Origin: a virus
Lineage: Duplodnaviria > Heunggongvirae > Uroviricota > Caudoviricetes
DNA: 25,616 bases
IMG/VR virus record: IMGVR_UViG_3300029033_000243
Location: 1-25,616 of that record
Direction: 5' to 3' (one strand)
Shown here: one piece after another, positions 16,839 to 25,616 of the stretch
How positions within the stretch are numbered: position 1 is the first letter of the stretch
Layout: the number at the start of each line of letters is the position of its first letter
Position numbers and translations under genes: made by a program
Notes under the pieces: model-generated
The model's database searches: none
What the model saw: the letters and a program-made list of their open reading frames with translations, nothing else
Told to the model about the DNA's origin: nothing

Positions 16839-17072
16839 TTAATGCAGCCAGCTGTCGTCCTCCCACACCTTCTGCATAATTTTCATCACTTGTTTTCTTT
16901 CTTCATCCAGTTGCAGTCCGGTTAGTTCCACACCGTTAGAGCTACCTTTGCGAATGCGAATTACCGTTTTGGGATACAGGGGGCGCAGATTGCGGTAAAG
17001 CTCGGATTCAAGGGCGTCCAGGGTAGACTGGCTAATCTTCTGCTCTTTATCGATCATTATTTCAATGCGCAT
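16839..17072 (-). CDS. DinI-family protein, Tum-like antirepressor domain
   Basis: From the internal Met (MRIEIMIDKEQ...LDALESEL...VWEDDSWLH), 77 aa aligns by eye with E. coli DinI (MRIEVTIAK...ETWESADDWFVSE). The ORF-track frame extends upstream to 17144, overlapping the preceding ORF. Confidence 0.7.
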   Translation of the reverse strand: MRIEIMIDKEQKISQSTLDALESELYRNLRPLYPKTVIRIRKGSSNGVELTGLQLDEERKQVMKIMQKVWEDDSWLH

Positions 17073-17082
17073 AAAAGTCACC

Positions 17083-17271
17083 TCAGCTGATGACATCCAT
17101 TGAGCGGTTGTATTCGTGGCTTCTGATTTTTGCCATGAGTTCATCAGTCAATTCAGAAACCCACTGCAGAGCCAGCCCCTTCTCTTCATCACTACACTCA
17201 CTAGCCGCTACAAGCTTAAGAAAAAAATCAATGCGCTGGAGCTTCAAAGACTCCAAAAAATAGTCCTGCAT
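17083..17271 (-). CDS. small ORF (62 aa) preceding the DinI-like domain; possibly the N-terminal part of a Tum-like antirepressor
   Basis: ATG with AGGAGG 4 nt upstream; LexA box about 40-60 nt upstream; its 3' end overlaps the DinI-like frame. Confidence 0.5.
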   Translation of the reverse strand: MQDYFLESLKLQRIDFFLKLVAASECSDEEKGLALQWVSELTDELMAKIRSHEYNRSMDVIS

Positions 17272-17311: not shown

Positions 17312-17331
17312 CACTGTTTATATTTACAGTA
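17312..17331 (-). promoter_or_regulatory. LexA (SOS) box upstream of the Tum/DinI-like operon
   Basis: cACTGTttatatttACAGTa; core CTGT-N8-ACAG at 17314-17329, matching the E. coli SOS-box consensus TACTGTATATATATACAGTA at most positions. Confidence 0.6.
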
Positions 17332-22587: not shown

Positions 22588-23514
22588 ATGTCAACACACG
22601 AAATCACATTTCGCCATGTGGACGAAAAAAAGAAATCCTTAATCATGCAGAATCGCGGAGGGCAAGCAGTCATCGAGCGGATATTAGAAGCGTATGGTTT
22701 TTCTTCACGCCAAGCATTCTGCAATCATCTGGGGATATCACAGAGCACAATGGCGAACAGGTATGCGCGTGACACTTTCCCAGCTGACTGGGTTGTTATC
22801 TGTAGTATGGAAACTGGTGTATCGATTGAGTGGTTAGCATTTGGTACTGATACCGAAATGGAAAGCTTTGCAGATAAAAGTCACGACAATTGTAACAGTG
22901 AATCTCGGCACCTCAACAGAGAACCTAAAAACCCAAATGAGAACACTGTTACTATAAATCAAAACGGAAAAGCAGCAATAGAGCGAATCGTTGCAGCCTA
23001 TGGATTTAAGACAAGACAAGCTTTAGCTGATCATTTGGGTATTTCAAAAAGCACACTAGCTAATCGTTATATGAGGGATACATTTCCAGCCGATTGGATT
23101 ATCCAATGCGCACTTGAAACTGGTATATCACTAGATTGGCTCGTTACTGGAAAAGGCTCAAAATCGAACGATGTAAATACTGATGTAGCAAAGTTATTAG
23201 CATATAAGCTAATAAATGGTAAGTTAATAGATGCGGACTATATCCACTTTGATAAATCTTTAATACCACACAACCTTATAAATCCGCAGGTTGTGATCGA
23301 TAGCGAAAATGTTTTCGTAGTAGACTATGGATATAAAGAAATATCTGATGGTGAATGGTTAGTAGAAATTGAAGGCAAAATAAATATTAGAACATTGGTC
23401 CGCATACCCGTAGGAAAAGTTAAAGTAATATCTACTCATGCTGATTTCATATGTGACATTGAGAATATAAAACTTTTAGCAAAATGCCACTGTGCTTTCA
23501 TTAAAAACATTTAA
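22588..23514 (+). CDS. CI-like immunity repressor with tandemly duplicated N-terminal DNA-binding domain
   Basis: 308 aa; two ~63-aa segments (res ~24-86 and ~126-188) share IERI..AYGF..RQA...HLGIS.ST.ANRY.RDTFPADW...ETG.S..WL..G, resembling the 186 CI-type N-terminal domain; followed by an AT-rich C-terminal domain. Confidence 0.7.
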   Translation: MSTHEITFRHVDEKKKSLIMQNRGGQAVIERILEAYGFSSRQAFCNHLGISQSTMANRYARDTFPADWVVICSMETGVSIEWLAFGTDTEMESFADKSHDNCNSESRHLNREPKNPNENTVTINQNGKAAIERIVAAYGFKTRQALADHLGISKSTLANRYMRDTFPADWIIQCALETGISLDWLVTGKGSKSNDVNTDVAKLLAYKLINGKLIDADYIHFDKSLIPHNLINPQVVIDSENVFVVDYGYKEISDGEWLVEIEGKINIRTLVRIPVGKVKVISTHADFICDIENIKLLAKCHCAFIKNI

Positions 23515-23526
23515 TTTGGACTTATC

Positions 23527-24498
23527 ATGGACTCTAAAGAACACAAAAAAGAAACAATACAAAACAGCATCACAAAATCAGAGTTTAAAAAATACGTTGA
23601 TTTTATACATGATGATTCTATTCCACTTCCTGAACATGAACGCACATATCTAAAGAACTTGTTGAAAAATGGTGAAATTGAAGAATTCAAGGATCAATAT
23701 AGACGCCATCTCCAAAACTTAGATAGAGTCGGCTTTAGCGACGAAGATATTGAATTACAACTTAACGTGTTAAAAAAAGATAATAATGAATTCAGAAACT
23801 TATTACGTTTTTATACAGCTCGCTTATCTGATTTGCAAGAAAGCAACACCTCATTATCATTAAAAAACAAAGAGTTAGAAAATTTAAACATAGAAAAAGA
23901 ATCTTTACTTGAGCAAACTTTTTCTAGGATAAAAGAGTTAGAGGCTTCAAATAACGAATTAACCAGTCGAGCACATCAAGAGAGAATTGATCAAAAAATT
24001 CCCGAATATGTCAATAGTGTAAAAGATGATTTAGGTGATGATGATGATCACTTTATTTCACTCGCCAAAACATGGGCTATTGCTGGTGCAATAGCCGGTC
24101 TTTCCGCTGTCATTTTTTCGTTCATATCATTATATTTTGTTACTGATTTCATAAATGCTAAAGGATTTGAACTATTTTATCTATTCACCAGAGGCCTGAT
24201 TGGAATTTCCATTTTATCATGGCTTTCTTATATCTGTCTGAGTATCTCCAAAAAGTATACTCATGAGTCCATTCGCAGAAAAGACAGAAGGCATGCCTTA
24301 ATGTTTGGTCAAGTCTTCCTACAAATTTACGGTTCGACTGCGACCAAAGAAGATGCTATTCAGGTATTTAAGGACTGGAACATGTCTGGAGATTCTGCTT
24401 TTTCTGATCAAATGGATTATCCGCCAAGTTTCCAAACGCTATGGTCTACCGCGAAAGAAAAAATCAAACCTTCTCATTCAGAAAAATCCTCCGATTAA
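23527..24498 (+). CDS. AT-rich cargo gene: 323-aa coiled-coil protein with two C-terminal transmembrane helices (candidate superinfection-exclusion/abortive-infection protein)
   Basis: Between repressor and integrase, same strand; heptad-like region (LSDLQESNTSLSLKNKELENLNIEKESLLEQ...); hydrophobic helices WAIAGAIAGLSAVIFSFISLYFV and LIGISILSWLSYICLSI; AT-rich. Confidence 0.65.
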   Translation: MDSKEHKKETIQNSITKSEFKKYVDFIHDDSIPLPEHERTYLKNLLKNGEIEEFKDQYRRHLQNLDRVGFSDEDIELQLNVLKKDNNEFRNLLRFYTARLSDLQESNTSLSLKNKELENLNIEKESLLEQTFSRIKELEASNNELTSRAHQERIDQKIPEYVNSVKDDLGDDDDHFISLAKTWAIAGAIAGLSAVIFSFISLYFVTDFINAKGFELFYLFTRGLIGISILSWLSYICLSISKKYTHESIRRKDRRHALMFGQVFLQIYGSTATKEDAIQVFKDWNMSGDSAFSDQMDYPPSFQTLWSTAKEKIKPSHSEKSSD

Positions 24499-24531
24499 AT
24501 AAGTGATGTATATAAAATACATAAACATACA

Positions 24532-24559
24532 TTGACACTGGTTATGCATACAGTAAAAA
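24532..24559 (+). promoter_or_regulatory. putative sigma70 promoter upstream of int
   Basis: TTGACA (24532-24537), 16-nt spacer, TAAAAA (24554-24559); GGAGG upstream of the int ATG. Confidence 0.3.
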
Positions 24560-24584
24560 TGCTCTCTATTGGAGGGCATTTTTT

Positions 24585-25616
24585 ATGGCTGTACGAAAAC
24601 TCACCACAGGAAAATGGCTTTGCGAATGTTACCCCGCCGGACGTAGTGGGCGTCGTGTGCGTAAACAATTCGCCACCAAAGGCGAAGCACTGGCTTTTGA
24701 GCGTCACACGATGGAAGAAACCGAAGCAAAGCCCTGGCTGGGTGAATCAGTGGATCGTCGAACACTGAAAGACGTGGTTGAGCTATGGTTCAAACTACAT
24801 GGTAAATCACTGACTGCTGGGCAGCATGTCTATGACAAATTGCTGCTGATGGTTGACGCTCTGGGCAATCCCCTTGCAACTGATCTAACCTCTAAAATGT
24901 TTGCCCACTATCGAGATAAACGCCTGACAGGTGAGATCTACTTCAGCGAGAAATGGAAGAAAGGAGCAAGCCCGGTCACCATTAACCTAGAGCAAAGCTA
25001 TCTAAGTAGTGTTTTTAGCGAACTATCCCGCCTGGGCGAATGGTCGTATCCGAACCCACTGGAGAACATGCGAAAATTCACCATCGCAGAAAAAGAGATG
25101 GCATGGCTTACCCATGAGCAGATTGTTGAACTGCTGGCTGATTGCAAACGTCAGGACCCAATTCTGACACTGGTAGTCAAGATATGCCTAAGCACAGGCG
25201 CACGCTGGCGAGAAGCAATAAATCTTACCCGCTCGCAAGTGACCAAATACCGAATTACCTTTGTAAGAACGAAGGGGAAGAAAAACAGAAGCATCCCTAT
25301 CAGTAAAGAGCTTTACGAAGAGATCATGGCGCTTGATGGGTTCAATTTCTTTACAGACTGCTATTTTCAATTTTTATCCGTGATGGAAAAAACGTCTATC
25401 GTGCTCCCTCGCGGTCAACTGACACACGTTCTGCGCCATACGTTTGCGGCGCATTTCATGATGTCGGGTGGAAATATCCTTGCTTTGCAAAAAATCCTCG
25501 GACATCACGACATAAAAATGACTATGCGTTACGCACATCTGGCACCGGATCACCTGGAAACTGCATTACGGTTTAATCCGCTGGCAACACTACCAACATC
25601 AATAGCAATTTTTTGA
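24585..25616 (+). CDS. int: tyrosine integrase (P2-type)
   Basis: 343 aa; C-terminal catalytic region with LRHTFAAHFMM and HHDIKMTMRYAHL (conserved R, H-x-x-R, Y); stop codon is the last three bases of the window. Confidence 0.9.
   Translation: MAVRKLTTGKWLCECYPAGRSGRRVRKQFATKGEALAFERHTMEETEAKPWLGESVDRRTLKDVVELWFKLHGKSLTAGQHVYDKLLLMVDALGNPLATDLTSKMFAHYRDKRLTGEIYFSEKWKKGASPVTINLEQSYLSSVFSELSRLGEWSYPNPLENMRKFTIAEKEMAWLTHEQIVELLADCKRQDPILTLVVKICLSTGARWREAINLTRSQVTKYRITFVRTKGKKNRSIPISKELYEEIMALDGFNFFTDCYFQFLSVMEKTSIVLPRGQLTHVLRHTFAAHFMMSGGNILALQKILGHHDIKMTMRYAHLAPDHLETALRFNPLATLPTSIAIF

Follow-up and report, generated by a model that had tools for sequence, protein, structure and literature searches.

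The 25,616-nucleotide (nt) stretch analysed here (the window; positions 1 to 25,616 of IMG/VR virus record IMGVR_UViG_3300029033_000243, Caudoviricetes) is a 186-like prophage at rcdA. Between its cI repressor gene and its integrase gene (int), the prophage carries an open reading frame (ORF) of 323 amino acids (aa), here termed X, and the best overall explanation of our data is that X is probably an anti-phage defence protein acting by phage-triggered membrane permeabilisation. Both cI and X of the window are identical to WP_001589054.1 and WP_000377448.1 as printed in Table S8 of PMC13092281, the two proteins that make up system CITO/DS-34 of DefensePredictor (DeWeirdt et al., Science 2026; PMC13092281), and X is very probably the defence gene of that system. 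DS-34 was taken from assembly GCF_003334015.1, an ECOR strain among the 69 Escherichia coli strains analysed, where genes separated by no more than 30 bp were grouped into one transcription unit. Cloned into MG1655 on a low-copy plasmid together with its native promoter, it is recorded as defensive = TRUE and replicated = TRUE (PMC13092281 Tables S6-S8). Plating of phage Bas3 fell about 40-fold (-log10 of the efficiency of plating, EOP, 1.6) and Bas19 gave no plaques (-log10(EOP) 3.6), whilst the DefensePredictor log-odds were +8.29 for X and -7.79 for cI (PMC13092281). The defence role of the cI-X pair is already known, as a screen hit in 2026; the main text of PMC13092281 is silent on DS-34, which figures in table entries only, and we found no other paper that mentions it.

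A sequence-only reading of the window had earlier described a 323-aa ORF lying after a CI-like repressor and before int on the same strand, and the ORF list, in which X is the sole long ORF of the flagged interval, and the Pfam domains of the neighbouring genes agree with this. The interval given for it (23160-24530) ended about where it should; its start lay ~367 nt too far to the left, inside the cI C-terminal domain. The markedly low guanine-plus-cytosine (GC) content that had been described was also recovered (33.8% in X vs 48.5% in the window, with int at 47%). The same reading had guessed at a membrane-acting exclusion or abortive-infection protein, which is supported by the DS-34 record of the identical pair and by the presence of the defence system PD-Lambda-1 in the same slot of a related phage, and had offered a lysogenic conversion factor as the alternative, which is without support. 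X is not a chance ORF, because it matches phrog_2628, which carries no assigned function, over its full length (E value 5.5e-87; X residues 17-323 on profile positions 8-314 of 314) and has homologues in 143 clusters at 90% identity, with all those bearing an organism name belonging to Enterobacterales.

A conserved two-helix module behind a variable N-terminal part

Two hydrophobic stretches in the C-terminal half of X, with Kyte-Doolittle means over 19 residues of up to 2.17 and 1.75, are taken as transmembrane helices TM1 and TM2, with a loop of ~10 residues between them. Beyond TM2 the flank is strongly basic (SKKYTHESIRRKDRRH; seven lysine or arginine residues in 16), the flank before TM1 is acidic, and no signal peptide was found ahead of the 175-residue N-terminal part. 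These flanks suggest that both termini are cytoplasmic (N-in/C-in), a topology that the basic flank after TM2 fits and that agrees with relatives bearing a cytoplasmic TIR domain where X has its coiled coil. AlphaFold2 (58 homologues; predicted local distance difference test, pLDDT, 78) modelled X as three short helices at residues 17-67, a single unbroken helix at 72-203 in which the coiled coil runs into TM1, a turn, a helix at 213-268 comprising TM2 and beyond, and then a helix at 274-292, whilst a module-only model of residues 145-300 reached pLDDT 88.4 and a predicted template modelling score (pTM) of 0.76. The coiled-coil-like N-terminal half and the two strongly hydrophobic helices of the sequence-only reading both reappear in these results, the former in the long AlphaFold2 helix and the latter in the hydropathy peaks, and both are matched by the DeepCoil/DeepTMHMM annotation of the identical protein (coiled coil 77-142, TM 184-237; PMC13092281 Table S8).

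The alignment of X homologues is clearly two-part, with residues 1-144 hardly alignable (mean column conservation ~0.3) and residues 241-293 conserved at 0.91, the latter carrying the motif SKKYTHESIRRKDRxHALMFGQVFLQIYG...VFKDWNMSGDSAF. The conserved module is ordered as a juxtamembrane helix, TM1, a short periplasmic turn, TM2 and the cytoplasmic motif. Among E. coli prophages sharing the same attachment site, Int is 96-99% and CI 58-64% identical, with the C-terminal part of X at 51-69% and its N-terminal part at 24-44%. Nonsynonymous divergence (dN) in unsaturated pairs was 8-10 times higher in the N-terminal than in the C-terminal part (0.325 vs 0.043 between loci L003 and L004; 0.25 vs 0.026 between L006 and L012), and residues 1-144 are a candidate sensor or specificity domain. 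Positive selection on this part was considered and dropped, the ratio of nonsynonymous to synonymous divergence (dN/dS, omega) never rising above 1. Of 5426 complete E. coli genomes, 154 gave a blastn match to an X-family gene, which was always single-copy and chromosomal, and searches of deposited phage genomes for X by tblastn and blastn gave no match. Several Klebsiella prophage-derived phage records (H56-H62) end 3 nt past a long cI and omit the cI-int interval, which may partly explain why X is without a match in the phage collection.

Searching 1.84 billion representative proteins with a profile of residues 140-323 yielded 473 clusters at E<=1e-3, of which 300 reached E<=1e-10. The module was C-terminal in all of the best 150 of the 473 matches, behind N-terminal parts that differ. 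Within 78 sampled members, TIR_2 was found in 11 (best E 1.7e-21), EAD11 in 5 (2.7e-24) and MgtE_N in 3. Protein P0180 has TIR_2 at residues 3-108 (44 bits vs a cut-off of 28) and the module at 143-313, P0181 and P0192 carry two EAD11 stretches ahead of the module, and EAD11 scores reach 85 bits among the members. Residues H256, A257, G261, F281 and W284 are invariant in relatives at 17-38% identity, with E247, R254 and N285 nearly so. The module profile was also used in the second word-indexed search for homologues, which gave 15 matches, mostly fragments or short proteins, and added nothing. A TIR domain joined to two TM helices is a recurrent immune-effector architecture, and EADs are reported to serve as adaptors by which effectors are tethered in conflict systems based on nucleoside triphosphatases (NTPases; Kaur, Burroughs, Iyer and Aravind 2020). 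The TIR and EAD11 fusions are the domain grammar of conflict-system effectors, and on the strength of this architecture we read the module as a putative portable membrane effector to which the variable N-terminal part would give specificity.

Family scans found no Pfam, NCBIfam or PADLOC (2023) family that describes the module. For X itself, for which the Pfam list at E<=1 is complete and holds four families, the Pfam, PADLOC and NCBIfam scans returned sub-threshold or compositional matches only (DUF2207_C, coiled-coil families and TIGR04211); for the Pfam scans of alignments, the 25 most frequently matched families were listed. DUF2207_C, which scored 23.7 bits in X against a Pfam gathering threshold of 33, spans the coiled coil and the TM helices, and was matched weakly in 30 of 58 relatives (best E 4.7e-7). 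A profile search of PDB sequences with X produced coiled-coil noise only. We tentatively propose that the C-terminal part of X defines a large membrane-effector family undescribed in the libraries searched (at least 473 clusters at 50% identity), SLATT-like but of independent origin, which different sensors or adaptors may have recruited (coiled coils in prophage repressor operons, TIR, EAD11 and MgtE_N-like domains) and which, when triggered by a phage, may permeabilise the inner membrane or speed up the lysis clock. DS-34 would then be its first experimentally active member, and its candidate signature is Y-x-H-E-S-x-x-x-x-D-R-x-H-A-x-x-F-G ... W-N ... S-A-F.

The cI-int interval as a cargo slot

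The gene arrangement of the window is the layout of coliphage 186 (Table 1). A Cox/Apl-like gene of 73 aa and a CII (CP76) gene lie on the opposite strand to cI, X and int; the gap from the cI stop to the X start is 12 nt, and 86 nt separate the end of X from int, which is a downstream neighbour outside the defence unit. E. coli CFT073 and six other complete genomes carry a prophage that is 99.7% identical to the window across cI-X-int, with the central part of X 100% identical to the CFT073 gene; the CFT073 prophage is integrated beside rcdA/ybjJ, and its copy of X bears the annotation 'hypothetical protein' (WP_000377448.1). The cI of the window is a long form in which the helix-turn-helix (HTH) domain is tandemly duplicated (residues 22-86 vs 124-188; 63% identity, E 7e-34), whereas the short CI of Dickeya, Yersinia and phage 813R9 (187-198 aa) corresponds to residues ~120-308 of it. 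An AT-rich tract starts within cI near position 23000 (GC of the cI C-terminal half, 33.7%), and the AT-rich, highly divergent cassette comprises the second HTH, the CI C-terminal domain and X, with the first HTH having backbone-like GC.

Table 1. Features of the cI-X-int region, with positions in the window
Feature	Position	Strand	Basis or remark
cI repressor, 308 aa; first gene of the DS-34 transcription unit	22588-23514	+	Pfam Phage_CI_repr 1.9e-61 (2 stretches), Phage_CI_C 4.8e-29
X (WP_000377448.1), predicted defensive gene of DS-34	23527-24498	+	ORF list, phrog_2628, Table S8 identity
Hypervariable N-terminal region of X, predicted cytoplasmic, residues 1-144	23527-23958	+	Small helical head and coiled coil
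Conserved C-terminal module of X, putative effector, residues 145-300	23959-24426	+	Alignments A1, A2, A5
TM1, residues ~177-205	24055-24141	+	Hydropathy, AlphaFold2 helix, Table S8 TM 184-237
TM2, residues ~217-240	24175-24246	+	Hydropathy; column conservation 0.80
Near-invariant motif after TM2, predicted cytoplasmic, residues 241-293	24247-24405	+	Alignment conservation
Promoter-like TTGACA-17-AAAAAT enclosing a LexA-box-like palindrome (24538-24553)	24532-24560	+	Promoter scan
13-bp hairpin and U-tract	24555-24583	+	Ends 1 nt before int ATG; pairs int Shine-Dalgarno (GGAGG)
Tyrosine integrase, complete, 343 aa	24585-25616	+	Pfam Int_N 2.8e-32, Phage_integrase 1.3e-21

In every E. coli locus inspected, apl and cII occupied one strand and cI, X and int the other, with cI-X gaps of 10-12 nt and X-int gaps of 81-91 nt. 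The cI-X-int order was also found in Dickeya, Yersinia, Dryocola and Brenneria, with cI-X gaps of 10-30 nt across genera. A scan of GTDB species uncovered 7 loci, of which 4 showed cI-X-int synteny and 3, all from Chimaeribacter, encoded an X homologue with neither cI nor int found by tblastn and without evident prophage genes nearby. The slot also holds other genes: in phage vB_EcoM-813R9 (L014:4106-5782), at the rcdA site, it is occupied by PD-Lambda-1 (PADLOC 3e-120; domains DUF4041 and T5orf172; annotated 'chromosome segregation ATPase'), and in Klebsiella phage 4LV2017 (L013:1851-2900) by an unrelated 349-aa protein without a family match. The cI-int interval is a cargo slot and a small hotspot for defence cargo; a 2026 survey of P2-like phages described the stretch from integrase to primase as a minor defence hotspot (PMC13586616). 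The 186/P2-like prophages use this short interval for defence cargo. Lysogens would express such cargo automatically, and, if 186 is a guide, entry of the prophage into its lytic cycle would switch it off.

The homologue P0130 (27% identity to X) lies between an Abi_alpha gene and an integrase on an island beside smpB (L017:3431-7094), the gene order being a CI C-terminal remnant, Abi_alpha, the X homologue, integrase, a DNA methylase and an MvaI/BcnI-type restriction gene. The TIR- and EAD11-fused relatives lay on contigs too short to reveal much of their surroundings. On one of the short contigs, the P0192 gene, encoding two EAD11 stretches and the module, is followed by a ParA/CbiA-like ATPase gene (L015:45-2284), a neighbourhood that hints at an NTPase-coupled system using the membrane module of X. 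Two more genes separate the X homologue from int in Yersinia rohdei (L007:6001-7466), the first encoding a 168-aa protein with bPH_3 and SHOCT domains and overlapping X by 14 nt, the second a 307-aa protein without family, and these are possibly accessory partners of X. The Y. rohdei prophage itself appears degraded: int is split, and CII is fused to GpA.

The 86-nt spacer between X and int is conserved whatever the cargo, including at the PD-Lambda-1 locus and in Dickeya. Within its LexA-box-like palindrome, CTG-N10-CAG is invariant in 8 loci, again including Dickeya and the PD-Lambda-1 locus, whilst CTGT-N8-ACAG has one mismatch in the window and is perfect in loci L002, L003 and L010. The RNA of positions 24490-24600 folds at -25.9 kcal/mol (z = -3.9), and the hairpin stem is kept with a different sequence in other loci (GCCCTC/GAGGGC); the hairpin probably marks the 3' end of the cI-X transcript or attenuates it. 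Collectively, the spacer elements suggest SOS-linked control of int together with termination of the cI-X transcript. On one reasonable reading, the cI-X transcript would be ended in the lysogen, or int translation masked, and an SOS-sensitive start in the 5' arm of the hairpin would free int on induction; cI-X would thereby form a two-gene lysogenic unit, as cloned for DS-34. Elsewhere in the window, an exact LexA consensus (CTGTTTATATTTACAG, 17314-17329) occurs just upstream of a minus-strand 62-aa ORF (17083-17271), downstream of which sits a DinI-family ORF (within 16839-17144), an arrangement that may be the counterpart of the SOS-controlled p95/tum region in phage 186.

Proposed mechanism and its rivals

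The gene, its place, its architecture and its family are shown by the present data, and the defence phenotype of cI plus X by the literature; beyond this, we infer that X rather than cI is the effector, that it has the topology and the sensor/effector split described above, and that it permeabilises the membrane. A lysogen would make X at a low level, together with cI, from the repressor (pL) transcript; the cI-X gap is only 12 nt. X would reside in the inner membrane as an N-in/C-in helical hairpin with its coiled coil and post-TM2 motif facing the cytoplasm, where the variable coiled coil would recognise a product of the infecting phage or a membrane event. Recognition would change how the conserved two-helix module packs or oligomerises, and the module would then permeabilise or depolarise the inner membrane, perhaps acting together with the phage holin in the way suggested for AbiZ. 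Death or lysis of the cell would precede progeny maturation, possibly via advanced holin-dependent lysis. This chain of sensing, module rearrangement, membrane breach and aborted infection is plausible, although taken by itself it stops a little short of probable.

Several observations weigh against this account. DS-34 acted on 2 of 24 phages, a narrow phenotype, and the reference titre behind the Bas19 value was as low as 4x10^3 (PMC13092281). The construct held cI and X together, meaning that the phenotype belongs to the pair, and the recorded plating data do not separate abortive infection from a block of DNA entry. The dN/dS of the N-terminal part of X is below 1 (0.24-0.49); fast evolution is therefore shown, and positive selection is not demonstrated. 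X had no match to DUF6161 (Pfam) or to AbiZ (PADLOC) at E<=1, and DUF6161 was matched by 1 of 78 relatives (8.5e-4) and by none of 26 module-only segments. With such matches to the family's hidden Markov model near-absent, AbiZ membership is therefore not established, attractive as the functional parallel is. Foldseek searches against PDB and BFVD gave no match at E<=1e-3 and found generic helical hairpins only, the best being to the AhlB/SmhB pore toxins, PomA/ExbB, SLATT proteins and one uncultured-phage protein (E 3.7e-3).

The main rival is superinfection exclusion, in which X would block genome ejection or entry of certain siphoviruses without killing the cell, in the manner of HK97 gp15, P22 SieA or T4 Imm. 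Both affected phages are siphoviruses (Bas19 a Nonagvirus; Bas3, going by its BASEL number, presumably a member of Drexlerviridae), X is predicted to be an inner-membrane protein in the lysogen, and a narrow, patchy host range is typical of Sie proteins. We nevertheless consider exclusion unlikely, given that the module is fused to TIR and EAD11 and lies beside Abi_alpha and restriction-modification genes, all of which are contexts of effectors rather than of entry blocks, and that X is almost wholly cytoplasmic, its ~10-residue periplasmic loop offering little surface to an incoming tail. The remote similarity to AbiZ reported in PMC13092281 also argues against it.

The presence of cI in the tested construct raises a different explanation, namely that cI, or a cI-X regulator pair, produces the DS-34 phenotype whilst X serves a different function, for example lysogenic conversion, envelope remodelling or prophage maintenance. 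Although cI and X co-vary as one AT-rich cassette and the host is a uropathogen, this is improbable: Bas3 and Bas19 are virulent and unrelated to 186, so that repression by cI would not be expected to affect them, and the DefensePredictor log-odds for cI are negative. X homologues moreover occur with a truncated cI or, in Chimaeribacter, without evident prophage genes, and the module is found fused to TIR and EAD11. Still less credence attaches to X as a lysis-timing or holin/antiholin-like factor for the prophage's own lytic cycle. Its two-TM architecture is holin-like, and one or two remote relatives weakly match Phage_holin_3_6 (E 1.6e-3 to 5.5e-3), but X belongs to the lysogenic operon and shares its strand with cI, distant from the late genes; its 323 aa and 175-residue cytoplasmic coiled coil are unlike holins, and no holin family was found above threshold.

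With the defence phenotype on record, the remaining value of the system is mechanistic. DS-34 appears to be a one-effector system with a clear split between sensor and effector, and the two-helix module occurs in hundreds of clusters. Once worked out, the mechanism of the module and the trigger of the coiled coil would annotate many hypothetical proteins in Enterobacterales prophages and elsewhere.

Comparison with known systems

DS-34 and the window are alike in both proteins, in gene order and in transcription unit, with no difference at the sequence level. The published DS-34 record (PMC13092281) holds the phenotype, the TM and coiled-coil annotation and an HHblits match, to which the present analysis adds the family analysis. 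New here are the cI-X-int synteny across Enterobacterales genera, the occurrence of PD-Lambda-1 in the same slot, and a large uncurated module family with TIR and EAD11 fusions.

AbiZ of Lactococcus pTR2030 is a single-gene abortive infection system, plasmid-borne in Firmicutes, whereas X lies in a repressor operon; AbiZ reportedly has two predicted TM helices. HHblits matched X to AbiZ/DUF6161 with a probability of 95.8 at a query coverage of 0.20, and the homologue WP_060615102 with 96.3 at a coverage of 0.37 (PMC13092281). AbiZ is thought to act with the holin, raising membrane permeability and bringing about premature lysis (reviewed in PMC13064643), and the mechanism proposed for X would be similar.

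The lambda rexAB and sieB genes and P22 sieA follow the same logic as X, placing an exclusion or abortive function with a membrane component in the repressor operon, but they show no sequence or fold similarity to it. RexB crosses the membrane with four TM helices and depends on RexA, whereas X is one protein with two, and no RexB, Sie or holin family is listed for X in Pfam, PHROG or PADLOC. PD-Lambda-1 (Vassallo et al. 2022) occupies the same cI-int slot in a sister 186-like phage at rcdA, yet is unrelated to X, being a soluble protein with DUF4041 and a T5orf172/MUG113 domain. As for SLATT domains, SLATT_1-6/DUF4231 are absent from the complete Pfam list of X at E<=1 and from the families listed in the alignment scans, two Foldseek matches to viral SLATT proteins are not significant (E 0.3-0.9), and the motif HES..DR.HA..FG...WN is specific to the X family, unlike SLATT. 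By functional analogy only, SLATT domains (Burroughs et al. 2015; CBASS Cap14, TIR-SLATT) are nonetheless the closest analogue in design, since they too form a C-terminal two-TM hairpin that is portable and fused to TIR and other conflict-system domains.

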